A stretch of DNA of 64,000 nucleotides, taken from contig CALVTJ010000004.1 of assembly GCA_944362545.1 (NCBI GenBank), forward strand, positions 68,494-132,493, read 5' to 3'. The position numbers were made by a program, and so were the translations under genes. The stretch comes from an uncultured Clostridia bacterium (GTDB taxonomy: Bacteria; Bacillota; Clostridia; Christensenellales; UBA1242). Numbering within the stretch: the stretch's first letter is position 1; each line of letters starts with the position of its first letter. Below, piece after piece: positions 18,485 to 64,000 of this stretch. Below the pieces are notes generated by a model that was not told where the DNA came from, did not search any database, and worked only from the letters and a program-made list of their open reading frames with translations.

Positions 18485-18581
18485 ATTATCTCCTGTTTTC
18501 AGGATAACAGCGGGGGAGGGAGTTGTCAACTAAATTTTGCATTTACATAAACAAAAATCTGATTTTATATTTTTAGAACAT

Positions 18582-45340: not shown

Positions 45341-45416
45341 TATTTTGTTCTCCTTTTGAGGGGCTCGCCCTTTTTTGTTTTTGTTTGATTTTTAAATGCA
45401 ATATATCTTTGAAAAA

Positions 45417-45533
45417 TTAGCCTTGTGTTTGTTTATGCTTTTTGCTCTTGGAACAAATAACCATAACTTTGCCATTTCTCTTGATAACTTTGCACTTATC
45501 ACACATAGGTTTAACCGATGCTCTGACTTTCAT
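45417..45533 (-). CDS. rpmJ: 50S ribosomal protein L36
   Basis: Below the ORF-track cutoff, translated by eye: [38 protein letters not shown] (zinc form, C..C..C..H). Confidence 0.9.
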
Positions 45534-45546
45534 TTTTTGCTCCTTT

Positions 45547-45768
45547 TTAACCCTTTTCTCTCCAAGTGATTCTTCCTTTTGAGAGGTCATACGGACTCAT
45601 CTCAATTTTCACTTTGTCGCCTTCAATGATTCTGATGAAATTTTGTCTAAGTTTTCCAGAAATGTAAGCAGTGATAACATGCCCATTTGACAAGGTGACT
45701 TTGAATGTCATGCTTGGCAAAACTTCTGTGACAACTCCTTCAAATTCAATTACATCTTCCTTTGACAT
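45547..45768 (-). CDS. infA: Translation initiation factor IF-1
   Basis: [41 protein letters not shown]. Confidence 0.95.
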
Positions 45769-46028
45769 AAAAGGCTCCTTTCTTTTAAAAATTTTCGAAT
45801 TTCCGCATTTGTTTTTTCCTGTTCAGATTTGAGTTTCTGCGCATCAAACCCAATTTTTGAAGCCTTCTGAACATGTTTGAGGCTCTTTTTTTTCGGTTTA
45901 GTCAATTTAAGTCGGTCGCCATCAACCAAAAAGCAAAATTTGTCATCAAGTTTGGCTACCACAAAAATCTGATTTTTTTCTTTTCCGGCAGTGGCAATGA
46001 CAACATCACCTGTTTGCAAATTCATCAT
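45750..46028 (-). CDS. KOW-domain small RNA-binding protein (YbzG family)
   Basis: 92 aa between map and infA, the position of B. subtilis ybzG. Carries a KOW-like [18 protein letters not shown]. Confidence 0.7.
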
Positions 46029-46785
46029 CTTTCTCCAAAGTCAAAATTTGCACTCCTGTCTTTGTGAAAAGAACAGTGTTTTCATAATGTGCCGAAGGTT
46101 TGCCATCGCGAGTGACAATTCCCCAGCCATCACGAAGCATGTAGATTTCTTTCTTTCCCGCGTTTATCATAGGTTCAATCGCAAGAACGGCATTTTCTGC
46201 AATGATTGGACCATCTGTTTCTTTCCCGTAGTTCAAAACGGATGGAGCCTCATGCATTCTTCTGCCAATGCCATGTCCACAGAGTTCACGAACAACCGAG
46301 AATCCGTTTGACTCTGCATGAGTTTGAATAGCATGAGAGAGTTTTCCAAGTCGGTCGCCAATACGAATGTTTTCAATACCTTTGAAAAAACATTCTTTGG
46401 TGACTCTAATCAGTTTTTTCTTCTCTTCGCTAATCTCGCCGACAGGGTAAGTTCTTGCAGCATCACCATGATAGCCTTTGTAGGCAACCACAAGGTCAAC
46501 GCTGACAATGTCGCCTTCTTTTAAGATTATGTCCTTGCTAGGAATGCCATGAACCACCATTTCATTGACTGAAATGCAGGTTGCAGCCGGATAGCCTTCA
46601 TAGCCCAGACATGCAGGCGAACCACCACTTTCTATTATAAACTTTTCTATGGATTTGTCAATATCATAAGTGGAAACTCCTGGTTTTATCAGAGTTTTCG
46701 CATACACCAAAGCATCGCGAGTAAGTTCGCACGCTTTTTTGATAAGCACAATCTCTGCAGGTGTCTTTTGAATCAACTCAATCAC
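46006..46785 (-). CDS. map: Type I methionine aminopeptidase
   Basis: Pita-bread metal ligands in context (VSVDLVVAYKGYHGDAA, CGHGIG, AIEPM). Confidence 0.93.
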   Translation of the reverse strand: MIELIQKTPAEIVLIKKACELTRDALVYAKTLIKPGVSTYDIDKSIEKFIIESGGSPACLGYEGYPAATCISVNEMVVHGIPSKDIILKEGDIVSVDLVVAYKGYHGDAARTYPVGEISEEKKKLIRVTKECFFKGIENIRIGDRLGKLSHAIQTHAESNGFSVVRELCGHGIGRRMHEAPSVLNYGKETDGPIIAENAVLAIEPMINAGKKEIYMLRDGWGIVTRDGKPSAHYENTVLFTKTGVQILTLEKDDEFANR

Positions 46786-47398
46786 TCCTTTTTAAAAAGT
46801 TTTTCACAGGTTTGTATGTTTCTTGAGGAGAATTCTCTCCTTTGACAACAAACAACCTATCAGCGTAGAAGTTTATGAGTGGTGATGTCTGTTTTTCATA
46901 AACTTCCAGACGATGATTGACTGTTTCCAAATTATCGTCATCTCTTTGGAACAGTGGTGAACCGCATGCCTTGCAAGTAGTTTTATTATAGGTAGAAGTG
47001 TTGTAAATCTCACCACATTTACTGCACACCCTTCTGCCTAGACATCTGCGTCTGACTTCGTCAAACGAAACATCCAATTCAATTACAGCATCAATTTTTG
47101 CTATCTTTTCGAGCGCTTTTGCTTGCTCAATAGTCCTTGGAAAGCCATCAAGCACAAAACCTTTTTTGCAATCTTTTTGTGATATGCGCTCTTTAAGCAT
47201 CGCAATTGTCACGCTGTCCGGAACAAGTTGTCCTTTGTCCATATAAGATTTTGCCAGATTTCCAACTTCTGTTCCATCTTTTATATTTTCGCGGAAAAGG
47301 TCGCCAGTGGAAATGTGCACCAAACCAAAGTCTTTTGCAATTTGCCTTGCCAGCGTTCCTTTGCCTGAAAATGGAGCACCGAGAAGAATTAAATTCAT
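46778..47398 (-). CDS. adk: Adenylate kinase (zinc-lid form)
   Basis: GAPFSGKGT P-loop. Lid with CSKCGEIY..CKACG. Confidence 0.95.
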   Translation of the reverse strand: MNLILLGAPFSGKGTLARQIAKDFGLVHISTGDLFRENIKDGTEVGNLAKSYMDKGQLVPDSVTIAMLKERISQKDCKKGFVLDGFPRTIEQAKALEKIAKIDAVIELDVSFDEVRRRCLGRRVCSKCGEIYNTSTYNKTTCKACGSPLFQRDDDNLETVNHRLEVYEKQTSPLINFYADRLFVVKGENSPQETYKPVKNFLKRSD

Positions 47399-47420
47399 AA
47401 TTCAACCTCCGTGATTTGTT

Positions 47421-48722
47421 TTAATTTAAAAAGCCTTTATAGTTTCTCATAAGCATCTGTGCTTCCAAACTCTTGTCAAATTCAAGTGCAACAGAAACAA
47501 TAATCATAAGTCCTGTTGTGCTGAATGCGTTGATAAGACTTGCAAGTGTCACATCATCAATAGCCTTAAATGCTAAAGATGGAATGAGGGCGATAAACGC
47601 CAAGAAGATTGCACCAAAAAGCGTAATCCTTTTTGAGATTTTTCGCAAATAATCCGAAGTGGTTTTTCCTGGTCTAATACCTGGAATAAATCCGCCTTGT
47701 TGTTGCATACGCCTTGATATGTCATCCGTGTCAAATGTGATTTGAGCATAGAAGAACGCAAATGCCAAAATGAGCAATGCCAACAGCACAATGTAAACCC
47801 AAGAGCCTGTGCCCAAATAGGTGTTATACCAATTGAGTGCACCTTCCCAAGAAGGAACAATGCTCATAATAAGTTGTGGAAGTGTCAAAAGAGATGTCGC
47901 AAAGATGATTGGCATAACTCCGGAAGCATTCAATTTGATTGGAATGAATGTGTCCTGACCACCATACATTCTTCTGCCTTTAATCTGTTTTGCATACTTA
48001 ACCCCCACTCTTCTTTCGGAAGAATCGATGAAAACGATAAGCCCGAAAATCAAAACGAGTGCCACAAGATAGATGATAACCATCCAAAGATTTGTGATGT
48101 CGTTTCCTACCTGTGAAATAGCATTTGAAATGCCATTTGCAGATGATGAAATGATACCAACAAAAATCAAAAGGCTCATGCCGTTTCCAACACCAATTTG
48201 TGTGATTTTTTCACCAAGCCAAACGGTAAACATTCCGCCTGCTGTCAAAATCAAGACAATTCCTGCTGCAATCACCCAAAGTGGAAGATTGAGAATGTCA
48301 GTGTCGATATAACTTTGGAAGGAAACCACAATTCCAATTGCCTGTGCCAAAGCCAAAACCAAAGCACAAATACGAGTGTAAAATGTGATTTTTCTTCTTC
48401 CATCTTCACCCTGTTTTGACAATCTTTCAAGTGATGGTATGGCAACTGTCAAAAGTTGAATAACGATTGATGCCGTGATATAAGGCGACACGCCCAGAGC
48501 AAGAATCGAACCATTTGACAATGCATCACCAGAGAGCAAATTCATAAGTGAGAAGAATGTTGTTCCTTCTGCTGAACCGCTTTCTGCAATCGCACCAGAA
48601 AGGTCAAATCCAGGACACACCAATGCACAACCCACTCTGAAAAGAATGAGAAGACCAAGCGTGATGAGAATTTTCTTTCTCAAATCCTTGATTTTAAAGG
48701 CATTTACGAGAGTCTTAAACAT
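47421..48722 (-). CDS. secY: Preprotein translocase subunit SecY
   Basis: 433 aa, 10 TM helices, in the canonical position after rplO. Confidence 0.95.
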   Translation of the reverse strand: MFKTLVNAFKIKDLRKKILITLGLLILFRVGCALVCPGFDLSGAIAESGSAEGTTFFSLMNLLSGDALSNGSILALGVSPYITASIVIQLLTVAIPSLERLSKQGEDGRRKITFYTRICALVLALAQAIGIVVSFQSYIDTDILNLPLWVIAAGIVLILTAGGMFTVWLGEKITQIGVGNGMSLLIFVGIISSSANGISNAISQVGNDITNLWMVIIYLVALVLIFGLIVFIDSSERRVGVKYAKQIKGRRMYGGQDTFIPIKLNASGVMPIIFATSLLTLPQLIMSIVPSWEGALNWYNTYLGTGSWVYIVLLALLILAFAFFYAQITFDTDDISRRMQQQGGFIPGIRPGKTTSDYLRKISKRITLFGAIFLAFIALIPSLAFKAIDDVTLASLINAFSTTGLMIIVSVALEFDKSLEAQMLMRNYKGFLN

Positions 48723-48725
48723 AGA

Positions 48726-49175
48726 TTACTCCTCTATTTCGATTTTTCCACCTGCTTTTTCAATTTTTTCAATTGCAGATTTTGTGGCCTTTTTAGCCTT
48801 GATTGTGAGAGGTTTTGTAATCTCTCCATCGCCAAGCACTTTAAGTCCATAAGGTGCTCTCTTGCCGATAACTCTGTATTCATACAAGAGTTCTTCGGTG
48901 ATAACTGTGTTTGGTTCAAAAATCTCCAAATCGCCAACATTTACTGTGGAGTAAACTTTGCGATAGTTGTAGTTATTGAACCCACGAATTGGAATCTTTC
49001 TGATAAGTGGAATGTTTCCGCCTTCAAATCCAGGCTTAACACCGCCACCACTTCTTGACCATTGACCCTTTTGACCTTTTCCAGAGGTTTTGCCAATGCC
49101 AGAGCCGATTCCACGACCAACTCTAACCTTTTTAGTTGTTGAGCCAGCGGCAGGTTTAAGATTTTCTAATTTCAT
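48726..49175 (-). CDS. rplO: 50S ribosomal protein L15
   Basis: MKLENLKPAAGSTTKKVRVGRGIGSGIGKTSGKG. Start trimmed to ATG 49175 after AAGGAGG. Confidence 0.95.
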   Translation of the reverse strand: MKLENLKPAAGSTTKKVRVGRGIGSGIGKTSGKGQKGQWSRSGGGVKPGFEGGNIPLIRKIPIRGFNNYNYRKVYSTVNVGDLEIFEPNTVITEELLYEYRVIGKRAPYGLKVLGDGEITKPLTIKAKKATKSAIEKIEKAGGKIEIEE

Positions 49176-49185
49176 TTTTGCCTCC

Positions 49186-49374
49186 TTACTCTTCAACCAC
49201 TTCAACGAGGTGTCTTACATGGAACAAACTTCCACGAATGCTGTCGTTGTCTGGTAAAATTCTAGTTTGGTTAAGTTTTTTAAATCCAAGGGCTTCCAAA
49301 ATTTTCATTTGGTCTTTGTTATAACCAATATTACTTCTAACCCAAGTGACTTTCAATGTTTTCTTGTTTTTCAT
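49186..49374 (-). CDS. rpmD: 50S ribosomal protein L30
   Basis: 62 aa. LKVTWVRSNIGYNKDQMKILEALGF. Confidence 0.93.
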   Translation of the reverse strand: MKNKKTLKVTWVRSNIGYNKDQMKILEALGFKKLNQTRILPDNDSIRGSLFHVRHLVEVVEE

Positions 49375-49386
49375 AACGCCCTCCGA

Positions 49387-49935
49387 TTAAATTTCCTCAG
49401 GCTTTTTGCCACGACGAGTAGCAATTTCTTCTCTTGTTTTGAGAGAAAGAAGCCCATTCATAGTTGCTCTAACAACATTGATTCTGTTTGTAGAACCGTG
49501 AATCTTTGTCACAATATCCTTAACGCCAGCAACTTCCAAAACAGCTCTGGCAGCACCACCAGCGATAACTCCGTGACCTTCTTCAGCAGGAAGCATCAAA
49601 ATCTTTGTTGTGCTAAATTTTCCAACTGTTTCATGAGGAATTGTTCCGTTTACAACAGAAATCTTCCTCATGTTTTTCTTTGCAACAACTGTTGCTTTGT
49701 CAATTGCGTTTGGAACTTCAGCACCCTTGCCGATGCCCATTCCAACATTGCCCTTGCCATCTCCAACGACAACAAGTGCGGAGAAACGCATGGTCCTTCC
49801 ACCCTTGACAACCTTTGTCACACGGCGAACATGGACAAGTCTTTTTTCCATGCCATCATCTTCTTTTTTGACAGGTCTTTCACGACGGTTGTTTGCAGGT
49901 CTATCTTCTCTCTTCTTCTTAATTTCTTCTGCCAT
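49387..49935 (-). CDS. rpsE: 30S ribosomal protein S5
   Basis: [36 protein letters not shown]. Confidence 0.95.
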
Positions 49936-49944
49936 GACATCCTC

Positions 49945-50313
49945 CTAAAACTTAAGTCCTGATGCTCTAGCACCATCAGCGACTGCCTGAACTCGTCCTG
50001 TGTAGATGTAGCCACCTCTATCAAAAACGACTTCTTTGATTTTCTTTTCCACTGCTCTCTTGCCGATAACTTCACCAACAATCTTTGCAGCTTCTGTCTT
50101 TGTCTTGCCTTTAATCTGTTCTGCAACTTCTTTGTCGAGAGTAGAAGCAGAAACGAGAGTCTTGCCGTTTTCATCATCAATGATTTGAGCATAGATGTTT
50201 GTCAAACTTCTGTAAACATTAAGTCTTGGTCTTTTTGCAGTGCCAACAACTGTTTTTCTTACTCTTGCATGACGAACAAGTCTATCTTTGTTCTTATCTT
50301 TAACAGTAATCAT
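49945..50313 (-). CDS. rplR: 50S ribosomal protein L18
   Basis: [33 protein letters not shown]. Confidence 0.95.
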
Positions 50314-50327
50314 TTCTCAATTTCCTC

Positions 50328-50870
50328 CTACTTCTTTGCCTTGCTTGCAGCCTTACCAACCTTTCTTACAAGGTGTTCACCATCATAGTGAATTCCATAG
50401 CCATGATAAGGTTCATATGGTCTTTTGCTTCTAATAACAGAGCAGAATTTGCCAACACTATCTCTGTCAACGCCTGAAACAACAATTTCAGTTGCGGATG
50501 GGCAAGCCACTTTCAAATCAGAAGGAATGACAACTTCAATTGGATGAGAATAGCCAAGTCCCATAACAAGTTTATTGCCAGAAACCTGTGCCTTATAACC
50601 AACTCCGGCAATAACAAGTTTCTTTTCCCAACCCTTTGTCACACCAACAACCATGTTGTGAACAAGTGCTCTTGAGAGTCCTTGTTTTGCGCTCAATTCT
50701 TCATTTTCATACGTGAAATGAACTTCATTGTCCTTTACTTCTGTTTTGATACCTTTGTCAATCACAAATTTCAATGTGCCCTTTGGTCCTGAAACAGTGA
50801 TTTCTTCTCCATTTCTGGTGAAAGTTGCACCATTTTCAAGTTTAACTGGTTTATTTCCTATTCTTGACAT
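50328..50870 (-). CDS. rplF: 50S ribosomal protein L6
   Basis: MSRIGNKPVKL..VSGPKGTL. Start trimmed to ATG 50870 after AAGGAGG. Confidence 0.95.
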   Translation of the reverse strand: MSRIGNKPVKLENGATFTRNGEEITVSGPKGTLKFVIDKGIKTEVKDNEVHFTYENEELSAKQGLSRALVHNMVVGVTKGWEKKLVIAGVGYKAQVSGNKLVMGLGYSHPIEVVIPSDLKVACPSATEIVVSGVDRDSVGKFCSVIRSKRPYEPYHGYGIHYDGEHLVRKVGKAASKAKK

Positions 50871-50881
50871 AATGCACCTCC

Positions 50882-51280
50882 TTACCATACATAAGCGAGA
50901 ACTTCGCCACCAACATTCAAACTTCTTGCAACCTTGTCAGTCACAATGCCCTTGTTTGTTGAAATGATAGCGATTCCAAGCCCGCTTATAACCTTTGGAA
51001 GATGTTCTTTGTCAGAATAAATTCTAAGTCCAGGTTTTGAAATTCTCTTCAAACCCTGAATGACACTCTGTCCATCTTCATCATACTTGAGTGTGATTTC
51101 GATGTTTTTAAAAGAACCAGAGTCAACGAGTTTATATTCTGCAATATAACCTTCATCCAAAAGGATTTTTGTTATTTCCAATTTTTCTTTTGATGCAGGA
51201 ACTTCAACAGTCTTATGTTTTGCACTTATAGCATTTCTAAGACGAGTCAACATATCTGCAATTGGGTCTGTCACAAACAT
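50882..51280 (-). CDS. rpsH: 30S ribosomal protein S8
   Basis: [27 protein letters not shown]. Confidence 0.95.
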
Positions 51281-51290
51281 AATTCCCTCC

Positions 51291-51476
51291 TTACCAACTT
51301 GACTTCTTCACGCCAGGAATTTCCCCGCGGTTAGCCATTTCTCTAAAACAGATTCTGCAAATGCCATATTTGCGAAGCACTGCGTGAGGTCTGCCACAAA
51401 TAGAGCAACGAGTGTATGCTCTTGTTTTATATTTAGGTGTTCTTTTCTGTTTTGCAATCAATGATTTTTTAGCCAT
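51291..51476 (-). CDS. rpsN: 30S ribosomal protein S14 (type Z, zinc form)
   Basis: 61 aa. [23 protein letters not shown]. Confidence 0.95.
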
Positions 51477-51487
51477 GAACTTTCCTC

Positions 51488-52036
51488 CTATCTAGCGAAA
51501 GGCAAACCAAGTGCCTTCAAAAGTGCTTTTGCCTCTGCATCAGTTTTTGCAGTGGTAATAAAAGATACATCAAGCCCTCTAATTTTTTCCACTTTGTCGT
51601 AAGCGATTTCTGGGAAAATAAGTTGTTCCTTAATGCCCATTGAGTAGTTTCCTCTGCCATCAAATGACTTATCGGAAATTCCTCTGAAGTCTCTCACTCT
51701 TGGAAGTGCAATTCCTGTAAGTCTGTCGAAGAATTCATACATTCTTCTGCCACGAAGTGTGACCATTGCACCAATCTTGAGCCCCTGTCTAACCTTGAAG
51801 TTTGAAATAGCTTTTTTAGCCTTTGTTGCAACAGGCTTTTGTCCAGAGATAAGTGCCAATTCTTCAACGGCTGTGTTAAAACTCTTTGAATTGTCCTTAA
51901 CATCTCCAAGTCTCATATTCAAAACGATTTTAACAAGTTTTGGAACTTCATTTACGTTTTTATAGCCAAACTCTTTGACAAGTGCTGGAACAATTTCTTC
52001 TTTATAACGCTTTGCTGTTTGATTTTGTTCTTTCAT
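51488..52036 (-). CDS. rplE: 50S ribosomal protein L5
   Basis: [36 protein letters not shown]. Confidence 0.95.
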
Positions 52037-52047
52037 CTTCCACCACC

Positions 52048-52584
52048 TTATGCTTCTGTTTTAGCAGCTGGTTTCTTTGTCGACTTTTTTGTTGTTGAGG
52101 TTTTTGCCTCTTTTGTTTTGCTTGCTGTTGTCTTGACTGTCTTTGAAGTGTTCTTCTCTTCAGTCTTCTTTTCTTCTGCTTTCTTTGTTGTCTTTGCAGT
52201 TTTTGCATTTTCAACCTTTGCAGAAGAGATGTTTTTCTTTGCATCTTTCTTTGTTGCTTTCACAAATTCTTTGTCAAGAGAAGCGGAGCATTTTTTGCAA
52301 ACTCTAACTTTCTTGCCATCAATTTCTTTATGTCCAACTCTTGTAGCTTTTCCACAAGTTGGGCAAACAACCAAAACATTTGAAGCCTCAATTGGAGCAG
52401 TTTGCTTTACAATTTCACTCTTTTCATTTTGCTTTCTTGCCTTCTTGTGTTTTGTCACAATGTTGACACCATCAACCAAAACCTTGTTATTTTTTGGGAA
52501 AACATCCAAAACTTTTCCGGTTTTGCCCTTTTCTTTTCCTGTGATAACCAAAACGGTATCACCTTTCTTTATTGTCATACTCAT
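52048..52584 (-). CDS. rplX: 50S ribosomal protein L24 with a Cys4 insert and a lysine-rich C-terminal extension
   Basis: KOW core [30 protein letters not shown] sits where B. subtilis L24 has no cysteines. About 70 extra K/A/T-rich residues bring it to 178 aa. Confidence 0.9.
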
Positions 52585-52599
52585 TTCGATGTTCTCCTT

Positions 52600-52968
52600 T
52601 TAAATAACTTCCGGAGCAAGTGATATTATCTTCATGTATCCTTTGTCACGAAGTTCTCTTGCAATAGGCCCAAACACACGAGTACCCTTTGGTTGTTTTT
52701 GATTATCTATAATCACAGCAGCATTGTCATCAAAACGGATATGAGAACCATCAGGTCTGTTCAAACCCTTTGTTGTTCTGACAATAACTGCCTTCACAAC
52801 ATCACCTTTCTTAACTGAACCACCAGGGATGGCTTTCTTGACAGATGCGACAATAACATCACCGATGTTTCCGCTTCTTCTAAAAGAACCACCAAGAACT
52901 CTGATACACATAATTTCTTTTGCACCTGTGTTGTCAGCAACTTTAAGTCTTGTTTGAGGTTGTACCAT
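52600..52968 (-). CDS. rplN: 50S ribosomal protein L14
   Basis: [28 protein letters not shown]. Confidence 0.96.
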
Positions 52969-52978
52969 ATCTATCCTC

Positions 52979-53242
52979 CTATTCCGCTTTTTCTACGATT
53001 TTAACAACTCTGTGATATTTTTCTTTTGAAAGAGGACGGGTTTCCATAATAAGCACGGTATCCCCAACTCCACATTCATTGTTTTCATCGTGTGCTTTAA
53101 ATTTCTTTGTTTTTTGAACGACTTTTTTGATTTTTGGATCCTTAACTCTGTAAGTGACCTTAACAACGACAGTTTTGTCCATTGTGCCAGCGCTTACAAC
53201 AACGCCTTGTCTTGTATTTCTCAAATTTCTACTTTGTTCCAT
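52979..53242 (-). CDS. rpsQ: 30S ribosomal protein S17
   Basis: [25 protein letters not shown]. Start trimmed to ATG 53242 after GGAGG. Confidence 0.93.
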
Positions 53243-53447
53243 CGTTGTTTCCTCCATTTGCTATTTCCTTTTCTCTGATAGCAGTTTGAACTCTGGCAAT
53301 TTCTCTTCTCACATTTCTGATTGCAAGAGGGTTTGCCAAGTTTCTCGTAGCATGTGAAAAACGAAGATTAAAGAGTTCAGTTTTAAGTTCTTTAAGTCTT
53401 GCGTTCAATTTATCAAGAGAAAGAGTTTTGATTTCTTCATTCTTCAT
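53229..53447 (-). CDS. rpmC: 50S ribosomal protein L29
   Basis: [36 protein letters not shown]. Start trimmed to ATG 53447. Confidence 0.93.
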
Positions 53448-53877
53448 TCTTCTCACCACCTTCTACGGCGTTTTCCTTCTTGACAAATTTGGTCTTGCAA
53501 GGAAGTTTGTTTCCAGCAAGTCTGAGAGCTTCCTTAGCCGTAGCTTCGGAAATTCCTTCAATTTCAAAAAGGACTCTGCCTGGTTTTACAACTGCAACCC
53601 AAAATTCTGGATTACCTTTTCCAGAACCCATACGAGTTTCAGCCGGTTTCTTTGTCACTGGTTTATCTGGGAAAATCTTAATCCAAACTTTTCCACCGCG
53701 CTTGATGTATCTTGTAAGAGCGATACGAGCAGCTTCAATTTGATTTGATTTAATCCAGCAAGGTTCGCACGCAATAATGCCGTAAGTGCCATAAGTCAAG
53801 GTGTTGCCCTTTGTAGCCTTTCCGGTCATTCTTCCACGCATAACTTTTCTTCTTTTAACTCTCTTAGGCATTAACAT
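53437..53877 (-). CDS. rplP: 50S ribosomal protein L16
   Basis: [25 protein letters not shown]. Confidence 0.96.
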
Positions 53878-54541
53878 TGTTTTTGTCCTCCTTTATAGGT
53901 TGTTTAGACAAAATCTCGCCCTTGTAAATCCAGCATTTGATTCCAAGTTTTCCATAGTTTGTAAGTGCTGCTGATTCTGCATAATCAATGTCCGCACGAA
54001 GAGTGTGAAGTGGAAGAGAGCCTTCCATATACTTTTCTGTTCTTGCGATTGAGTTTGCGCCATCAATAACACCACTAACTTGAACCTTGCAACCTTTTGC
54101 TCCTGCCTTCATAACTCTTTGAATGGCCTGTTTCAAGGCTCTTCTCCAAGCCACACGCTTTTCAAGTTGTGAAGCGATTGAATCAGCAACAAGTTGCGCG
54201 TTAAGGTCAGGTTTTTTAACTTCCTTAACATTTAAAACAAGGTTTTTAACAGGTCTAACAATCTTGTTAAGATCTTTCTTAATTGCCTCGATTCCTGCAC
54301 CCTTTGTGCCGATAATCATACCAGGTTTTCCTGTGTAAATATCGATTTCAAGTTTGTTTTCTGTTCTTTTGATTTCAACTTCAGCGATACCTGAATTTGA
54401 ATGTTTTTTCTTAAAGTAAGTTCTTACATCATGGTCTTCTTTAAGATTTTTGGCAAAATCTTGTTTATTGGCATACCAAGTTGATTGCCAGTCTTTGTTG
54501 ATACCAATTCTAAGTCCGTATGGATTAACTTTCTGCCCCAT
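53864..54541 (-). CDS. rpsC: 30S ribosomal protein S3
   Basis: [24 protein letters not shown]. Start trimmed to ATG 54541. Confidence 0.96.
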
Positions 54542-54936
54542 TATTTTGCCTCCTTCAACTCGTCCAAAACGATTTTGATATGACAAGTTTTCTTCAAAAT
54601 TCTGTCTGCTCTTCCTCTTGCTCTAAAAGAAATTCTCTTCATAAGTGCACCGGAAGTGGAATAGCACTCAGCAACATAAAGGTTGTCTGCTGAAAGACCT
54701 TTGTTGTTTTCAGCATTTGCAATCGCACTCTTCAAAACTTTCAATGCTTCACTAGCACCAACCTGTGGCATGTAAGTAAGAATGGCAACAGCCTCGTTTG
54801 CTTTCTTTCCTCTGATGTTGTCAAGAACAATTCTAACCTTTGATGAGCTCATGCGAACATCTTTTGCAACAGCATAAGGACGATTGTCTTTGTTTGTGGC
54901 TCTTTTTTCAGCCTTTTGTCTAATTCTTGTAGCCAT
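54541..54936 (-). CDS. rplV: 50S ribosomal protein L22
   Basis: AKDVRMSSSKVRIVLDNIRGKKANEAVAILTY. Confidence 0.95.
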   Translation of the reverse strand: MATRIRQKAEKRATNKDNRPYAVAKDVRMSSSKVRIVLDNIRGKKANEAVAILTYMPQVGASEALKVLKSAIANAENNKGLSADNLYVAECYSTSGALMKRISFRARGRADRILKKTCHIKIVLDELKEAK

Positions 54937-54946
54937 TTTTCTCTCC

Positions 54947-55231
54947 TTATTGACTCAATTTTGCGGCAGTTTGTTTTTGTCCCGCATGTCCTTTGAAAGT
55001 TCTTGTTAAAGAGAATTCGCCAAGTTTGTGACCAACCATATCAGCAGTCACATAAACAGGAATATGTTTTTTGCCATTGTGAACAGCAAATGTAAAACCT
55101 ACAAATTCTGGATAGATTGTTGAACTTCTTGACCATGTCTTGATAGGTTTTTTAACACCGCTTTCTGCCATTTCATTAACTTTTTTCAAAAGTCTTGGGC
55201 TGACATAAGGCTTTTTCATTTCTTTTTTCAT
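54947..55231 (-). CDS. rpsS: 30S ribosomal protein S19
   Basis: [32 protein letters not shown]. Confidence 0.96.
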
Positions 55232-55245
55232 TTATGGCCTCCTCC

Positions 55246-56073
55246 TTAATTTACTCTCTTAACCATCAAACGGTTAGATCTGTTTTTCTTCTTTCTGGTC
55301 TTAAGACCAAGTGCAGGTTTGCCCCAAGGTGTCACAGGTGACTTCATACCAACAGGGCTCTTGCCTTCACCACCACCATGTGGGTGGTCGTTAGGGTTCA
55401 TAACAACACCACGAACGGTTGGGCGAACACCCATATGTCTTGTTCTTCCAGCCTTACCGATAGAAACAAGTTCGTGGTCAAGATTTCCAACAGTGCCGAT
55501 TGTTGCACGGCAGTTGAGAAGAACTTTTCTCATTTCTCCTGATGGAAGTCTGAGTGTTGCATAATTTCCTTCTTTTGCCATAAGTTGCACTTCTGCACCA
55601 GCAGAACGAGCAAGTTGGCCACCTCTTTTTGGTTCAAGTTCAATGTTGTGAACAAGTGAACCTACAGGGATATCTGAAAGTGGAAGGTTGTTTCCAACTT
55701 TGATTTCCACTCCACTTCCGCTCATAAGCACATCTCCAACCTTAAGTCCGACAGGAGCAATGATATATCTCTTTTCTCCATCAGCATATGAAAGCAGTGC
55801 GATGTAAGCGGTTCTGTTTGGATCGTATTCGATTGCAACCACCTTTGCAGGGATGTTGTCTTTGTTTCTCTTAAAGTCGATGATACGATACTTTCTTCTG
55901 TTTCCGCCACCCTTGTGACGAACAGTGATCTTTCCTTGTGCATTTCTTCCAGAATGTTTCTTCTTAACAGCAAGGAGAGACTTTTCAGGTTCTTTCTTTG
56001 TCAATTCTTCTGTCGAAAGTTTTGAATAAAATCTTCTTCCGGCTGAAGTTGGATTACTTTTTATAATAGCCAT
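55246..56073 (-). CDS. rplB: 50S ribosomal protein L2
   Basis: [36 protein letters not shown]. Confidence 0.96.
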
Positions 56074-56086
56074 TTTCTCCTCCTAA

Positions 56087-56389
56087 TTAAGACAAACTTT
56101 CAAAGAATGCGATTGGCTTTGACTTTTCTGTAAGTGTGACAATTGCTTTTTTGTAGTCACTTGTCTTGCCAACTGTTCTTCCTTGTTTTGTGTTTTGCGA
56201 TTTTTCATGCCCTTTAACGATGCATGTGTTGACTTTTGCCACTTCGACATTAAAGAGTGTTTCAACTGCATGAGCAATTTGAATTTTGTTTGCTCTCTTA
56301 TCTACAACAAAACCGTAAATCTTGTTTTGAATGCCTGCATAACTTTTTTCTGTAAGAAGTGGTCTGATAATGATTTCATTTGCTTCCAT
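56087..56389 (-). CDS. rplW: 50S ribosomal protein L23
   Basis: IIRPLLTEKSY..FVVDKRANKIQIAHAVE. Confidence 0.95.
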   Translation of the reverse strand: MEANEIIIRPLLTEKSYAGIQNKIYGFVVDKRANKIQIAHAVETLFNVEVAKVNTCIVKGHEKSQNTKQGRTVGKTSDYKKAIVTLTEKSKPIAFFESLS

Positions 56390-57012
56390 TATGCGTTTGC
56401 CTCCTCTAAGAATTTAACTGCGGACTCTGTCAAAACAACATTTCTGTTTGAAACAACATCATATGTGTTCAAAAGTTCAACATTTACGGTGCTGAGATTT
56501 GGGATGTTGTTTGTTGCTTTGAGTTCTTTGTCAGTGTTGTTTGCAGAAACAACCAAAACTGAACCATTAAACTTGAAAGCGTCCATAAATTTTTGAGCAT
56601 CCTTTGTCTTTGCGCTTGCCACCTCAAACTTGTCCAAAACTGTAAGTTCTTTCTGTGCAAGTTTTTGGCTAAGTGCTGACAAAAGGGCTGTTCTTTTCGC
56701 TTGCTTGTTGACTTTCTTTGAAAAGTCTCTTGGCTTTGGAGCAAACACAACTCCACCACCAATGAATTGAGGTCCTTTTGTGGAACCCTGTCTTGCTCTA
56801 CCTGTTCCTTTTTGTCTGTAAGGTTTTGCAGAGTGTCCTCTCACTTCACTTCTTGTAAGTGTGCTTTTGTTCCCTTGTCTTTGGTTTGCGTTGTAAGCAA
56901 CCACAACTTCATGGATGAGAGGTTCGTTATATTCTACGCCGAAAACTTCATTTTTGAGGTTCAAAGAACCAACTTCTTCGGCTTTCATGTTATAAACTTT
57001 AACCTTTGCCAT
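56389..57012 (-). CDS. rplD: 50S ribosomal protein L4
   Basis: NQRQGNKSTLTRSEVRGHSAKPYRQKGTGRARQGS. Confidence 0.96.
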   Translation of the reverse strand: MAKVKVYNMKAEEVGSLNLKNEVFGVEYNEPLIHEVVVAYNANQRQGNKSTLTRSEVRGHSAKPYRQKGTGRARQGSTKGPQFIGGGVVFAPKPRDFSKKVNKQAKRTALLSALSQKLAQKELTVLDKFEVASAKTKDAQKFMDAFKFNGSVLVVSANNTDKELKATNNIPNLSTVNVELLNTYDVVSNRNVVLTESAVKFLEEANA

Positions 57013-57028
57013 TTCCGTTCTCCTTAAA

Positions 57029-57646
57029 TTACTTTACAGATTGTCTGATAGTAAGGATGGAACCTTTGCTACCTGGAACATTACCCTTTATCAAAAGTAA
57101 GTTTCTATCTGCATCGACTTTGACAATTTCCAAGTTTTGAATGGTCACCTTTTCGTTTCCATATTCACCTGGCATATGCTTGTTTTTGAAAACTCTTGAT
57201 GGAGTGGAGTTTGCACTCATAGAACCAACTTCTCTGTGAACAGGTCCTGTTCCGTGAGTCATCTTAAGTCTGTGTTGGTTCCATCTCTTGATAACGCCTG
57301 AAAATCCGTGACCCTTTGTTATTCCAGAAACATCAACTCTGTCTTTTGCACTGAAGATATCTGCCTTAACAACTGCACCAACTTCCAAATTTCCGTCAAG
57401 CGCAAATTCTCTCAAAACCTTGAATGGTTCGGTCTTTGCCTTGTCAAAAATTCCCTTTTGTGGTTTTGTCACATTTTTCTTCTTCTGGTCAAAGGCACAA
57501 ACATAAGTGTCATAGCCATCAACTTCTTTTGTCTTTTTCTGCACAACTGTCATTGGACCAGCTTCAACAACAGTCACAGGTATAACCAAACCGTCATCAG
57601 TAAAGACTTGTGTCATACCGAGTTTTTTACCTAATATACCTTTCAC
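57029..57646 (-). CDS. rplC: 50S ribosomal protein L3
   Basis: [31 protein letters not shown]. Confidence 0.96.
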
Positions 57647-57660
57647 TTCTCTTTACCTCC

Positions 57661-57969
57661 TTACAGTTTGATGCTAATCTCAACGCCGGCAGGCAATTCA
57701 AGTTTCATAAGTGCATCAATAGCCCTTGCGTTTGGATTGTAGATATCAATAAGTCTTTTGTGGGTTTTGCTTTCAAATTGTTCTCTTGAATCTTTATCCT
57801 TGTGTGGAGAACGAATCACAGTGACCACTTCTCTGTCTGTTGGAAGTGGAATAGGCCCAGAAACCTTTGCACCATTCTTGCCAGCAGTTTCAATAATTCT
57901 CTTGCAAGCTTCATCAATAAGTGTGTGTTCATAGGCTTTAAGTTTAATTCTCATTTTTTGTGTTGCCAT
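57661..57969 (-). CDS. rpsJ: 30S ribosomal protein S10
   Basis: [34 protein letters not shown]. Start trimmed to ATG 57969 after AGGAGG. Confidence 0.95.
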
Positions 57970-58241
57970 TTTTCTTTTCTTAACCTCCTGTATCAACTTA
58001 CTCAAAATGTTGCATTTTTTCAAACGGGTGATGTGTTTTTTGTGCAAGCATTGTTCCCACAACAATTTTTCTTGACAGTGTCGAACACTATCCCGTGTGT
58101 GTCATGCTGTTTGACTTAAAAAAATGTCATTTTGGTCGCCCCGGCATCTTTGACCGAAACTCTGGTCCATGCAAATTTTCTTGTTGTCGCTTGTTTGACA
58201 CAAGTAACCTTGCACTTCATCCCATAAATAACAGCAAGCTT

Positions 58242-58433: not shown

Positions 58434-58979
58434 TTATTTGTTTAACTCATCATTAAAATCATTATATGGAGGTTTTTTAGGTTCTTTCTCATACATTTCT
58501 TCAAACCAGTCAAAGCCATACTCTCTCTTGCGCTCAACACGATTATCTACTAAAATTTCAAACTTGTCAAAGTTTTGTCTGCTGTCCCACATTTTCTTCA
58601 AATCAGCAGATACTAGATTCACAACAAATCCCTCCATTTTCATTCCTTTAATTTTTTGATTTACTCGTGGAACGACAAATTCTCCTGGAATATTGTCAAA
58701 TAAAAAGACCCAAAATGCTTCTTTCAATTCAAAAACGGCATTTTTAATGATGCCTTCCAATTTTTTGTTGACCATAAAAGGTCTCAATTCGCCATTTTCA
58801 CCTTTTTCTATTTTTGTAGTAAATTTAACTGTCGGATCAATCTCTGCAACATATTTGCCAGAAAAATAAAGTTTGTATATTCTTTGGTCATAAATACTGT
58901 TCCCAAGGACTTTCAAAAGCCCCTTAAATGGTCTTTCAAATTCTACCTGCCAATCTAAAATGGCCTTCTTTTTCTCCAT
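58434..58979 (-). CDS. Hypothetical protein (orphan, AT-rich)
   Basis: 181 aa with a GGGGTG RBS. No recognisable motifs. Confidence 0.55.
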   Translation of the reverse strand: MEKKKAILDWQVEFERPFKGLLKVLGNSIYDQRIYKLYFSGKYVAEIDPTVKFTTKIEKGENGELRPFMVNKKLEGIIKNAVFELKEAFWVFLFDNIPGEFVVPRVNQKIKGMKMEGFVVNLVSADLKKMWDSRQNFDKFEILVDNRVERKREYGFDWFEEMYEKEPKKPPYNDFNDELNK

Positions 58980-59052: not shown

Positions 59053-59703
59053 TTAGAATTGAAAATGAATTGTTTTACAATGACCAATTACATTTGTCTT
59101 TGTCAATGTTCTGAAATATTTTTCCGCTTGGTCCTTGCAATAATTTTTGTTTATGGCATTTTCATCCATAACATTTTTAAATTCCATTTTTTGTCTCTCA
59201 AAATAAAGCAAAACATTATCAACAAATTCATTATTTTCGATACATTCTTTTGGCATTGATGCACAAAAATGCTCATACCCTTGCATACTTTTTGTGACAT
59301 CATATGTGTTTAAAAGAGTGGAAACTGTCATCTCAATTTCACGATTATCAAGCAAATCATCCACACTTTCAATGTCAAGTTTTTTGGAAAATTGTGGATA
59401 TCTCAACACCCCGTTTCTGTGTATCACAGAAAGGTTTGTGCCATTCTTGTTTTCCACTAAACAAAAATTGCCTTCAAAATAACCATTTTCAATCGCATAT
59501 AATCTTACATCAGAATTTTTTGAGATATAAATACGATTTTCGTTTTTAAATTCCAAATAAATGTACTCCCAGTTTGGTTGTGATACAACATAACAATTTG
59601 GAAAGTTTTTCACCTTAACACCCAATGCTTTTTCAAAAGGAATTCTTTCGTTGAGACCATTGTCAATGTCAAGTTGTAAATAATTTTCACTTAAGTTCCT
59701 CAT
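59053..59703 (-). CDS. Hypothetical protein (orphan, AT-rich)
   Basis: 216 aa with a GAGGAG RBS. No recognisable motifs. Confidence 0.55.
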   Translation of the reverse strand: MRNLSENYLQLDIDNGLNERIPFEKALGVKVKNFPNCYVVSQPNWEYIYLEFKNENRIYISKNSDVRLYAIENGYFEGNFCLVENKNGTNLSVIHRNGVLRYPQFSKKLDIESVDDLLDNREIEMTVSTLLNTYDVTKSMQGYEHFCASMPKECIENNEFVDNVLLYFERQKMEFKNVMDENAINKNYCKDQAEKYFRTLTKTNVIGHCKTIHFQF

Positions 59704-59906: not shown

Positions 59907-59981
59907 CGGAGTGTAGCGCAGGGGTAGCGCGCACGGTTCGGGACCGTGAGGCCATGAGTTCAAATCTCATCACTCCGACCA
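59907..59981 (+). tRNA. tRNA-Pro (anticodon CGG), CCA encoded
   Basis: Folded by hand. Acceptor CGGAGTG/CACTCCG, D stem GCGC/GCGC, anticodon stem CACGG/CCGTG with loop TTCGGGA (CGG, G37), T arm ATGAG-TTCAAAT-CTCAT, discriminator A plus CCA. Confidence 0.9.
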
Positions 59982-60053: not shown

Positions 60054-61904
60054 TTAAATATTCTCTGCCAAAAACATGGTTTTGAATTTTTCATTGCGAT
60101 TAAACAATTCATCAAACGTGCCGGTGTCGATGATTTTTCCTTCATCCAAAAAGAAGATTTCATCGGCATCCTTGATTGTTGAAAGCCTGTGCGCAACAAT
60201 CACCACTGTGCTTTTGCCCTTCAGTCCATCAATACTCTCTTTGATGGCATTCTGTGCAAAATTGTCCAGCGAACTTGTGCTTTCATCAAAAATGATGATA
60301 TTTGAATTTCGAAGTAGTGCCCTTGCAATTGCCAAACGCTGTTTTTGTCCACCTGATAGTTTTATTCCGCTTTCTCCAACCTTTGTGTCCATGCCCTTTG
60401 GAAGAGAGGAAACAAATTCATCCAAATTAGCCTTTTTGATAGCATCCCAAACTTCTTCATCGGTGGCATCTTCTTTTGCCAAAATCAAATTTTCTTTGAT
60501 TGTCATGTCAAAGATGTAAGGAAATTGATTTACAAGTGAAATTGTGCTACGCAAAGTTGATTTGTCAAGTGTGGTTATGTCCACACCATTAATCAAAACC
60601 TGTCCAGAGTCCGCTTCATACATCTTGCTCATCAAATTCAGAATTGTCGATTTCCCACTTCCGCTCTTTCCAACAAATGCTACAGTGGTGTTTGGCTCAA
60701 TCTTAAATGACAAATTGTCAAAAATTTTGTTCTCCGATACAAGATTTTTAACAACCTTGGCATTTTTCTTCTTTTTTCCATCTTCATCATTTTCTGTTTT
60801 GTATTCATATTCTCGGAAAGTGAAGGAAACATTTTTAAATTCAATTTCGCCGGCAAGATTGTCGATGTGGCGTGTACCAAAATGCTCGGTCACAAACTCA
60901 TTTTCATCAAAGAGTGAAAACATTCTCCTGTGACAAACTTTGATGTTGACAAAAATATTTCCCAAATTGCCGATTCCATAAACAACATGCCACAGAGAAT
61001 CTCTGTTTGAATAAACAATCAAAAATGCTGTCAAAGTCAATAATCCCTTATCCATGAGATACAATCCCAAAATCAATACACAAAATGTGCCGACATTTAT
61101 GATAAAGTTTCTCAAAGACCAAAAAGATGTGTCCACCATGTCAAGTTTAAATCTGTGATTTCGATAATCCTCATAATAATCATTTGAGACTTTTGACAAC
61201 TTTGTCTCCAAACCAAGAGATTTGATGTCCTTTTCACTTCTAACAATTTCTGTCGTCAAAGAATGAACTTTGTCATTTTTCTTTCTGACAATCCATCTGT
61301 TTTTCCTTCTGATTTTCACACGAAGATACTCAACAATTCCCGCAATGATTATAATGCCCACCATTGCAATGGCAATCCAAGGATTGAGCGTGATAATGTA
61401 GATAAGCATAACTACAGCAGTGATGACACTTGTTATCACATCAACAACCGTGGCAAGATTGTCCACAATTTGCGCAGGATCTTCAACAATTCTCTGCACA
61501 AATGTGCCGGTGTCGTGATCATTGTATGTTTTTGAATTGAGTTTAAAAGCCTGTTTTGCCAAATCCAAATTTAGGTCAGCCATGATTCTGTTGGAATATT
61601 TAAAGTAAACAATATTTGTACAATACCAGCAAATCCTTTGTACAACACATATTCCAATAATAATCAAAAGCAAATAAAGTGGTCTGCTAAAATCTGATGA
61701 AACAACCGAGACACTTATTTCATCAATCAAATTTGCTAAAAAAAGTGTCAGGAAAATATCACAAACACAAGCCACAAGTGTCAAAAAAATATACAGCGCA
61801 ATCCATCCATTGTATTTTTTTAGATATTTCCAAAGACTTGGTTTTTGTGTTTTCTGCACCACCGATTCGGTTTTTTGTGCATTTGACTGTGTTTTTGCTC
61901 TCAT
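60054..61904 (-). CDS. ABC transporter, fused permease/ATPase (type I exporter, MsbA-like)
   Basis: 616 aa. 6-TM domain, then Walker A GKSGSGKST, signature LSGGQKQR, Walker B IIIFDE. Confidence 0.9.
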   Translation of the reverse strand: MRAKTQSNAQKTESVVQKTQKPSLWKYLKKYNGWIALYIFLTLVACVCDIFLTLFLANLIDEISVSVVSSDFSRPLYLLLIIIGICVVQRICWYCTNIVYFKYSNRIMADLNLDLAKQAFKLNSKTYNDHDTGTFVQRIVEDPAQIVDNLATVVDVITSVITAVVMLIYIITLNPWIAIAMVGIIIIAGIVEYLRVKIRRKNRWIVRKKNDKVHSLTTEIVRSEKDIKSLGLETKLSKVSNDYYEDYRNHRFKLDMVDTSFWSLRNFIINVGTFCVLILGLYLMDKGLLTLTAFLIVYSNRDSLWHVVYGIGNLGNIFVNIKVCHRRMFSLFDENEFVTEHFGTRHIDNLAGEIEFKNVSFTFREYEYKTENDEDGKKKKNAKVVKNLVSENKIFDNLSFKIEPNTTVAFVGKSGSGKSTILNLMSKMYEADSGQVLINGVDITTLDKSTLRSTISLVNQFPYIFDMTIKENLILAKEDATDEEVWDAIKKANLDEFVSSLPKGMDTKVGESGIKLSGGQKQRLAIARALLRNSNIIIFDESTSSLDNFAQNAIKESIDGLKGKSTVVIVAHRLSTIKDADEIFFLDEGKIIDTGTFDELFNRNEKFKTMFLAENI

Positions 61905-62027: not shown

Positions 62028-62381
62028 TTAAAGTTGTTTTTCTGCCCCTTTTACAAGATGATTGTTGATGTACTTTGTCATTTCTTCTTTCATCCTCGCT
62101 CGGGCTTCTTCCACAGTCTTAGTCATAAAAAGCACCCCAACCAAATCTTTTTGCTTCTCACTCCAAACACCAGCAAAATATTCGGTCTTTGCCGATCTGT
62201 TTGGATCTTTTTCAATTACTCCATAATATGCTGTCCATTTTCCATTTTCTCTAACTCTCTTCATGAAGTAGACCTCTGCTTCTCCACCATTCCGCCTGCT
62301 GTTATCCTCAACATAAGAGAGAGTGTCGAGCATCTCCGGCGACAACTCCCTTATTTGTTTTGGTGTCAAATTCAATCTCAT
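62028..62381 (-). CDS. Hypothetical protein
   Basis: 117 aa with a GGGAGG RBS. No family recognised. Confidence 0.55.
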   Translation of the reverse strand: MRLNLTPKQIRELSPEMLDTLSYVEDNSRRNGGEAEVYFMKRVRENGKWTAYYGVIEKDPNRSAKTEYFAGVWSEKQKDLVGVLFMTKTVEEARARMKEEMTKYINNHLVKGAEKQL

Positions 62382-62435: not shown

Positions 62436-63194
62436 TCAATTTTCATTCGTTTTATTTGATGAACTAGCATCTGTTTGCTCATTATTTTCATCCGGGACAT
62501 TAGTTTTTTGAACATTTTGATTTTTCAATTCATTTTGTTCACTAATTTCCATATTCTCTTCATTGGATATATTTGAATCTTTTTTCGTTCTCTTTTTGCT
62601 TTTATTTCCTTGTTTCTTCTTGTCCTTCTTCTTACCAAAATGGAAAATACTCAAAATCTTCCCCAAAATCAAAATGATTTGATCGGCATGCTCCAGTGAG
62701 TATCTCTTCATAAATGCCTTGCCAGAAATAAGAAGCGCCGCAATCACAGCCGAAACAAGGGAAGATACCACAACGCCCATGATGTCGCTCATATTCTGTG
62801 TGATTAGTGCGGTTGCTACGGCAGCACCAGCCGCACCACTCAAGATTGAGCATATATCGCCCAAAATGTCCGCAACAATGCTTGAAACCCTGTCCGCGTT
62901 TTTCTGCAGAATGATTGCTTCCTTCGCCCCTCTAACCTTTCTTGATGCCATGGCACGATAATTCTTTTCATCGCACGCAGTGATAGCCACTCCAATCATA
63001 TCTGTCAAAATGGCAATCACCAAAAAGACCACAATGACCACAATTGCCACAGCAATGTTTGCACCATTGAGTGCCACTTCGCTCAAAACACCAAATGCCA
63101 TTGAAAGCGAAAATGACAAAACCAGCACAATCAGTGGCCAGCGAAAATATTTTTTAAATTTGGATTCAGTTTGCTTTTTCTTTTTGGGGTGCAT
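62436..63194 (-). CDS. Four-TM membrane protein with a DUF21/CNNM-like core and a disordered basic/polar tail (OapA-like context)
   Basis: TAGGAG RBS. 4 predicted TM helices. SRKVRGAKEAIILQKNADRVSSIVADILGDICSILSGAAG resembles the DUF21 inter-helix pattern. The C-terminal tail of about 70 aa is K/N/E-rich. Confidence 0.65.
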   Translation of the reverse strand: MHPKKKKQTESKFKKYFRWPLIVLVLSFSLSMAFGVLSEVALNGANIAVAIVVIVVFLVIAILTDMIGVAITACDEKNYRAMASRKVRGAKEAIILQKNADRVSSIVADILGDICSILSGAAGAAVATALITQNMSDIMGVVVSSLVSAVIAALLISGKAFMKRYSLEHADQIILILGKILSIFHFGKKKDKKKQGNKSKKRTKKDSNISNEENMEISEQNELKNQNVQKTNVPDENNEQTDASSSNKTNEN

Positions 63195-63250
63195 AAATTT
63201 TTACTCCTATTATATTCTAAAAATAAATTTGTTTTGTCAGAAACTTTTAC

Positions 63251-63279
63251 ATTATAACATGAAGAAAACAAATTTACAA
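63251..63279 (-). promoter_or_regulatory. Sigma-A promoter of the 62436-63194 membrane-protein gene
   Basis: Minus strand: TTGTAA (63274-63279), 17-nt spacer, TATAAT (63251-63256). Confidence 0.55.
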
Positions 63280-63285
63280 ATAATC

Positions 63286-63310
63286 AAAAATAGAGCCATG
63301 CTTGGCTCTA
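63286..63310 (-). terminator. Intrinsic terminator ending the large ncRNA candidate
   Basis: Minus strand: TAGAGCCA-AGCA-TGGCTCTA (63291-63310) followed by TTTTT (63286-63290). Confidence 0.8.
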
Positions 63311-63875
63311 CTTGAAGACAGCAAAATCAGTAAACCTTGTGTCATAGGTTCGGTCGGATTTCCCGTTTCCGCACTCCATGTCACCATGTGAGCAGTTTCC
63401 TTTTAAGCAGAAACAAACACCGAATCGCCACTTAGAACACACTATAATCCTGTTTTTGCTTGCAAAAATGCAACAGTCTAGAAGTTTTCCTTGACAATTT
63501 CAGATGTTATTATCTTCTTTTGCAGACATAGTTTCATGAGCAGATAACAGTTTGTGTTGGCCGACACGAAACAGTTATGAAAACCTCAATTCCCATTATG
63601 TCCACTCAAAGCAGGCTACACTGCACACAGTTATTCCCGCAATGCAGGTTCTTCCCTAGAGAGTGGAGAATTTGTAATTCTGCACCCTGTTAGGTCTCCA
63701 CGAAAATTGGGTCGCCAGCTGTATGCCATTACAACCTGCCCAAAATTCTTAACTTCCAGCACCTGCCCCGATTTGGGCAATCAAAGCACGCACCAGAAAC
63801 TTCATCGGTGTGCCCTTCAACGCATTTTCATCGTCTTTCTAACAGTGAAACTGACTAGAATACTGCATCTTCAAG
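63286..63875 (-). ncRNA. Candidate large structured non-coding RNA (about 590 nt; OLE/ROOL size class)
   Basis: No ORF of 60 aa or more on either strand. Has its own consensus promoter and terminator. GC-enriched (30/60 at 63601-63660) against flanks (14/60 at 63901-63960). 8-bp closing helix 63868-63875:63311-63318, plus many local and long-range complementary segments. Confidence 0.6.
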
Positions 63876-63879
63876 ATAT

Positions 63880-63908
63880 ATTATAACATATCTATGTAAA
63901 AAAATCAA
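63880..63908 (-). promoter_or_regulatory. Near-consensus sigma-A promoter of the ncRNA candidate
   Basis: Minus strand: TTGATT (63903-63908), 17-nt spacer, TATAAT (63880-63885). The predicted start falls a few nt before the closing-helix strand CTTGAAGA. Confidence 0.65.
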
Positions 63909-63948
63909 CTATTGCATTTTGACTCTTGTCACTATCAAAATTTTCAAA

Positions 63949-63981
63949 TAAAAAATAGTGAAACTCATTTTTATCCACTAT
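63949..63981 (-). terminator. Intrinsic terminator of a gene lying beyond the window end
   Basis: Minus strand: ATAGTGG..CACTAT hairpin followed by TTTTTT. Confidence 0.55.
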
Positions 63982-64000
63982 CTTGTTGATTGAAAAATTG

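Follow-up and report, generated by a model that had tools for sequence, protein, structure and literature searches.

The analysed DNA (hereafter the window) is a stretch of 64,000 nucleotides of contig CALVTJ010000004.1 from an uncultured Clostridia bacterium, and near its end two genes follow each other on the minus strand. The upstream one (63286–63872), of about 587 nt from its putative start to the U-run of its terminator, specifies a large structured RNA that matches the OLE (Ornate Large Extremophilic RNA) family, RF01071; the downstream one (62436–63194) codes for a 252-aa membrane protein and is preceded by an AGGAG ribosome-binding site (63208–63204). As a whole, this is almost certainly an ole-oapA locus, i.e. 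the gene of OLE RNA and that of its membrane-protein partner OapA (OLE-associated protein A). OLE RNA, which is typically about 600 nt long and has many highly conserved nucleotides, was first described in 2006. In a GTDB-wide survey its representatives numbered 2,822, in Bacillota (PMC11332333).

In a scan against Rfam 15, RF01071 matched positions 63299–63887 of the minus strand with 412.2 bits (gathering score 50; E = 1e-117), spanning model positions 1–616 of 616 without truncation, and this was the sole non-tRNA match in the whole 64-kb window. When the cmscan alignment was mapped onto the window, both residues were present for 147 model base pairs, of which 134 were canonical, and the window RNA was identical to the consensus at 210 of the 245 highly conserved (upper-case) RF01071 positions (86%). 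ROOL, GOLLD, raiA and HEARO are likewise large, structured bacterial RNAs free of open reading frames (ORFs), and none of them was matched, even at E values up to 1, in a permissive Rfam search of positions 63200–64000; the only others found there, SMAD5-AS1_3 and MIR169_2, were sub-threshold and rejected as chance matches. The initial annotation of this DNA had left open a choice between an OLE-family locus and a new class of large RNA, and had proposed a comparison with these five models. Only OLE was matched, at full length, and the 412-bit match settles the choice for OLE; together with the OapA neighbour and the 11 related loci described below, it upholds the first half of that proposal and removes the second. 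Nothing counts against the OLE identification itself. The RNA is an ordinary member of a described family, already known and detected at once by standard annotation.

Concerning the downstream gene, hydropathy delimits four hydrophobic segments in its product (residues 20–38, 45–63, 114–132 and 138–156), and the AlphaFold model, with a mean predicted local distance difference test (pLDDT) score of 62 and values of 70–82 over the membrane core, places long helices over the same four spans. A conserved basic loop, RAMASRKVRGAKEA, is found between segments 2 and 3, and residues 109–113 (DILGD) form a DxxxD motif, both aspartates of which (D109 and D113) occur without exception in 20 homologues with identities down to 51%. 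The only Pfam resemblance is to CNNM (PF01595), with 22.1 bits, below the cut-off of 28.4. A sequence search of the PDB returned only the archaeal CNNM protein CorB (7M1U and 7M1T; E about 0.35), the top five Foldseek matches of the model are all CNNM, CorB or CorC transmembrane domains, and an NCBIfam search gave nothing meaningful. The published hallmarks of OapA are four transmembrane helices, a DxxxD motif absent from true CNNM domains and a weak, sub-MpfA similarity to CNNM (PMC11332333, PMC12265935), and CorB 7M1U is a top structural match to the OapA of Halalkalibacterium halodurans (PMC11332333). Because these hallmarks are present, 62436–63194 is oapA, as had been raised as a possibility for the gene with four transmembrane segments directly downstream; a homologue follows OLE in all the loci considered.

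With the Mg2+ transporters of the CNNM/CorB/MpfA type, the protein shares the four transmembrane helices and the faint PF01595 resemblance, CorB being the nearest solved structure, whereas its DxxxD motif, as published for OapA, is unlike true CNNM domains. Unlike both these transporters and the OapA comparators, it ends in a poorly conserved Lys/Asn/Glu-rich C-terminal tail of 67 residues (residues 186–252; 62436–62636, minus strand). This low-complexity tail, with 15 K/R, 12 D/E and 29 N/Q/S/T, varies widely in length and sequence among homologues, and a pLDDT of about 30 predicts it to be disordered.

A protein search with OapA gave 396 homologues, none of them named. Eight GTDB-representative genomes, all metagenome-assembled genomes (MAGs) of uncultured Clostridia, carry relatives with 73–86% identity; one of them is Candidatus Onthoplasma faecigallinarum, of a genus that NCBI places in the Christensenellales and that a 2025 paper assigns to UBA1242 of GTDB, a family of gut bacteria whose genomes are below 1 Mb (PMC12306168). 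In eight of the eight loci, a full-length OLE match (359–394 bits) immediately precedes the oapA homologue in the same orientation, and the same ole-oapA arrangement is present in two more distant loci (OapA 52–63% identical) and in the contig of a near-identical strain. The co-occurrence that the initial annotation had asked about is 11/11, i.e. ten distinct loci of uncultured gut Clostridia and one near-identical strain, all of them found through OapA homologues; in the OLE family at large, oapA follows the RNA gene immediately and one is rarely seen without the other. Homologues are not confined to near-identical strains, a case which that annotation had named as one that would speak against it. 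As for the hosts, OLE is a feature of anaerobic or extremophilic Bacillota, in line with relatives that are Clostridia MAGs and with a window carrying SpoIIE and typical Firmicute housekeeping genes.

The fold was assessed on an alignment of the window RNA and its flanks with ten relatives (L001–L010), giving 11 sequences with a mean column identity of 80%, and the controls were 500 column shuffles and 3' partners slid by 1–3 columns. For the Rfam structure plus the closing helix described below, 88.3% of the cells are paired, vs. 40–48% with slid partners. Changes on both sides occur in 56 pairs, and none of the 500 shuffles reaches the observed value on any measure. Covariation over these 11 sequences strongly supports the ornate family fold, and the helices of the family are preserved in the homologues, where helix-breaking substitutions had been proposed as the sign of a mistaken reading.

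The seven internal helices that had been traced by hand fared differently. All their arms are found at the positions given, yet only the inner AGAATT/AATTCT of the GTGG..AGAATT-ACA-AATTCT..CCAC stem-loop belongs to the Rfam fold, the outer GTGG/CCAC arms of the same stem-loop having no place in it. The nucleotides of the TGCCC/GGGCA hairpin, of TTTTTG/CAAAAA with its CTG/CAG flanks, and of the GAGGTTTTC/GAAAACTTC, GCAGGTT/AACCTGC, TCCACTC/GAGTGGA and ACACCGA/TCGGTGT pairings are paired otherwise or unpaired in the family structure. Taken together, GTGG/CCAC and the six rejected helices hold one pair changed on both sides, a value equalled in 448 of the 500 shuffles. At the RNA level, ACACCGA/UCGGUGU (63805–63811 with 63417–63423) is 96% paired in the 11 sequences, via one-sided, G-U-compatible changes only; it overlaps the strand of P12.2, which is established by crystallography, and in the Rfam consensus the two arms do not complement each other. 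This complementarity could be due to chance or could be a clade-specific alternative pairing.

The two ends of the RNA are joined by a closing helix, whose 5' arm (63867–63873, minus strand; U-GAAGA-U) pairs with the 3' arm (63313–63319, minus strand; G-UCUUC-A). In this register, G63872–U63867 faces G63319–C63314 as G-C, A-U, A-U, G-C, A-U and U-G. Columns 16–21 (aGUGGU) and 596–601 (AcCAcu) of the Rfam consensus are annotated as unpaired, yet they are mutually complementary in the same register as the window helix. Four pairs of the window differ from the family consensus on both sides, L010 has a further compensatory change (GAAGG/CCUUC), and 96.8% of the cells are paired across the 11 sequences: the closing helix is real and covarying. 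The initial annotation had recognised it as an 8-bp helix, CTTGAAGA/TCTTCAAG, with both arms correctly located, and these compensatory changes back it. Its three outermost pairs (CUU/AAG) may fall outside the RNA if transcription starts near G63872. The helix is probably the published P1, left unannotated in Rfam, since the literature puts P1 in domain 2 with P2 and P10–P15 (PMC12265935). Text searches of the literature for an explicit description of P1 and for ole promoters or terminators gave only this membership of domain 2.

Upstream of the RNA, on the minus strand, a consensus scan gave a sigma-70-type promoter (63880–63908) with a -35 box TTGATT (63908–63903), a 17-nt spacer and an extended -10 box TGtTATAAT (63888–63880), i.e. 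10 of 12 consensus matches plus the TG extension, from which transcription would start near G63872. The -35 box (TTGnnT), the TGnTATAAT -10 box and their spacing are all kept across the clade. At the other end, an intrinsic terminator (63286–63310, minus strand) consists of the stem UAGAGCC/GGCUCUA (63310–63291) with the loop AAGCAU, followed by UUUUU (63290–63286). A terminator scan reported it as a hairpin at 63313–63288 followed by a T-run, and RNAfold gave -15.1 kcal/mol for 63280–63320, flanking pairs included. The stem is invariant in 10 of the 11 sequences, while the loop differs in sequence and length. Both signals had been read correctly in the initial annotation, the promoter (TTGATT, 17 nt, TATAAT) to the nucleotide, as had the local G+C counts (30/60 at 63601–63660 and 14/60 at 63901–63960); G+C amounts to 43% in the RNA body, 37.5% in the whole window and 17–25% in the spacers on either side. 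A promoter and a strong terminator of its own suggest that ole is transcribed as a separate unit, and since both signals are conserved, the gene looks autonomous in this clade. A promoter-like site also lies between ole and oapA (63251–63279, minus strand; TTGTAA, 17 nt, TATAAT, with a TG extension), and such a match is present in 9 of the 11 loci. It is weak evidence for an oapA promoter, as chance matches are common in AT-rich spacers.

The RNA body has no ORF of at least 60 aa, as had been noted from the start, the longest reaching 59 aa (plus strand) and 49 aa (minus strand). A 32-codon ORF on the minus strand (ATG at 63729–63727) had been singled out as a place where codon periodicity might betray a coding function. 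Its start codon is lost (ACG) in 6 of the 11 sequences, its frame is interrupted by stop codons or shifted by length changes in most relatives, and its variable columns are spread over the three codon positions (16, 13 and 14 of 32). No 3-nt periodicity was found in any frame over the whole RNA in the 11-sequence alignment, and a coding role of this ORF is ruled out, neither its start nor its frame being conserved.

With the Rfam helices named after the published numbering as we map it, the site of the P13 hairpin (63415–63417, minus strand) is where the RNA departs from the full-length type: in the cmscan alignment, 3 nt (UUU) take the place of the 21 model positions that separate the P12.2 strand from P14, and in L010 1 nt takes the place of 19 model positions. 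P13 is absent in all 11 aligned sequences. The GNRA loop of P14.1, the weaker second OapB site, is kept as GUGA or GCGA. In other OLE RNAs, P13 is a bulged GNRA hairpin and the primary binding site of OapB (PMC7936274), and most RNAs of the full-length type have it. Since P13 is missing, the particle probably works without OapB in this lineage, as has been put forward for other reduced-genome lineages of the gut. P13 does not define the family, published OLE variants also being devoid of it, and the nucleotides of the OapB site are often lost in the variant 1 OLE RNAs of the TANB77 clade, where genomes are likewise reduced and OapB and OapC are mostly missing (PMC11332333).

The apical loop of the long P9 arm carries the palindrome GGCC (63559–63562, minus strand), aligned to the Rfam loop uuGGCCaa. 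A palindrome is kept in all 11 sequences, as GGCC in eight of them, UCGA in L003 and L004 and GCGC in L009; such switching from one palindrome to another is part of the published case for a kissing loop between the two RNAs of the OLE homodimer (PMC12286853). The helices have near-consensus lengths (P7, 40 nt vs. 44 nt in the consensus; P8, 27 vs. 29 nt; P9, about 100 vs. 98 nt), P7 being shorter by about 11 nt in L003, L004 and L007.

Compared with the full-length OLE RNAs of H. halodurans and Clostridium acetobutylicum, the window RNA shares the full-length model match, the conserved blocks and helices, P7–P9 close to the consensus length, the GGCC loop on the P9 arm, the closing helix and an oapA gene directly downstream. 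It differs from them by the absence of P13, by the lack of the usual neighbour genes around ole and, in the case of H. halodurans, by its own promoter and terminator, whereas ole belongs to a polycistronic cluster in that species (PMC12265935). With variants 1 and 2 it has in common uncultured gut hosts with reduced genomes, and with variant 1 also the loss of the OapB-binding P13 nucleotides; however, P7–P9 show none of the shortening of variant 1, and P7 and P8, missing from variant 2, are present. The hosts also differ, those of the variants being TANB77 and RF39, whereas the nearest named relative here is Ca. Onthoplasma in UBA1242, Christensenellales (PMC12306168). That UBA1242 and its relatives carry a distinct, uncatalogued OLE subtype, with P7–P9 intact, without P13 and forming an autonomous unit beside oapA, is a tentative proposal which we regard as rather doubtful.

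Three other explanations of the locus were weighed. An end-to-end OLE match at eight times the gathering score, 86% identity at the conserved positions and the OLE partner gene downstream leave virtually no room for a new class of large ornate non-coding RNA separate from OLE; after testing nothing supports it, the sole departures from the family being the missing P13 and slightly shortened loops. Rare genomes without oapA are reported to contain a defective ole gene. The present gene might likewise be decayed, a remnant without functional RNA in a shrinking genome, a view with which the genomes below 1 Mb in the relatives' lineage (PMC12306168), the deleted P13 hairpin and the 13 of 147 model pairs that are non-canonical would agree. 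Yet compensatory changes maintain the helices in 11 sequences that have diverged from one another, both transcription signals (promoter and terminator) are conserved, and every locus has, beside the RNA, an intact oapA whose DxxxD motif is invariant; the loss of P13 itself, being common to the whole clade, points to an old and tolerated state. A pseudogene is accordingly very improbable.

It is just as improbable that the stretch is a long structured 5' leader of oapA (riboswitch-like or an attenuator), or the gene of a small peptide encoded by the 32-codon ORF, rather than a stand-alone RNA. The peptide finds no backing in an ORF that is unconserved and shows no codon periodicity. For a leader speak the position of the RNA, directly upstream of oapA on the same strand, the polycistronic transcript that includes ole in H. 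halodurans (PMC12265935) and the read-through that the terminator could permit to some extent. What argues against it is a strong, conserved intrinsic terminator between ole and oapA, followed by the promoter-like site, as well as the established status of the OLE family as a trans-acting component of a ribonucleoprotein (RNP) (PMC12265935).

A few reservations attach to the ole-oapA reading. The fold matches of OapA have low scores (E = 5e-3 to 0.16; TM-score about 0.35 with CorB) and come from a moderately confident model; the transcript ends were placed from sequence features, and the function is carried over from distant species. Among the flanking genes examined, none belongs to isoprenoid biosynthesis or DNA repair, which are typical neighbours of ole. 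The flanks of ole-oapA differ even among close relatives: in L008 (3–353 and 5013–5528), an ABC-transporter homologue, 91% identical over the last 117 residues, lies upstream of ole, unlike the ABC-transporter gene of the window (60054–61904), which lies downstream (compare also window 59053–59703). In these variable surroundings, ole and oapA behave as a conserved module of two genes.

Concerning the other genes of the neighbourhood, a 117-aa ORF (62028–62381, minus strand) directly downstream of oapA is also present in the near-identical contigs L011 and L012. It was considered as a new OLE-associated gene and rejected, since it has no Pfam or NCBIfam match and none of the eight related loci contains it. 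In L011, the next gene upstream of ole, in the same orientation and just past the window end (64000), codes for a 141-aa protein of the CsxB family (PF27268; 144–569, plus strand). On the opposite strand, a single tRNA-Pro (CGG; 59907–59981, plus strand) separates the ABC-transporter gene from two unannotated ORFs; no Pfam match was obtained for ORFs 59053–59703 and 58434–58979. A ribosomal-protein gene cluster (about 45000–58065, minus strand) starts about 5 kb downstream of ole, with S10, L3, L4, L23, L2, S19, L22 and S3 identified via the near-identical contig L011, and SecY at 47421–48722. Clustering with ole has been reported for translation genes, among others. Farther away, the window holds the gene of the SpoIIE sporulation phosphatase (20137–22434, minus strand) and that of a 675-aa protein with a DUF285 'Mycoplasma' repeat (16502–18529, minus strand).

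The mechanism that may be proposed for this locus is transferred from work on H. halodurans, C. acetobutylicum and C. botulinum. By analogy, OLE RNA would dimerise via loop contacts that are conserved, among them the kissing loop formed by the GGCC palindrome of the P9 arm, and dimers of the four-helix, CNNM-like OapA would bind it and tether the RNP to the cell membrane. In H. halodurans, OapA binds OLE RNA 2:1 and is required for the membrane localisation of the RNA (PMC12265935). The resulting OLE RNP would help the cell to withstand short-chain alcohols, cold, excess Mg2+ and poor carbon sources.

As a whole, an OLE-like unit was recognisable from the raw sequence, even though the internal helices traced by hand were mostly wrong, and the 5'/3' closing helix left unannotated in the Rfam model now has clean covariation support. 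The residual interest of the locus lies in its clade-specific architecture (P13 absent, domain 1 intact, the unit autonomous, the genome of the host very small). If a distinct subtype were confirmed, it would offer a natural minimal OLE-OapA particle without OapB, and a comparator for recognising the essential parts of the RNP. The locus adds to the evidence that the OapB-binding P13 is dispensable in reduced-genome lineages and, as a further case of a drastically reduced genome keeping a non-coding RNA of about 590 nt and its membrane partner, it supports the importance of the OLE-OapA core.

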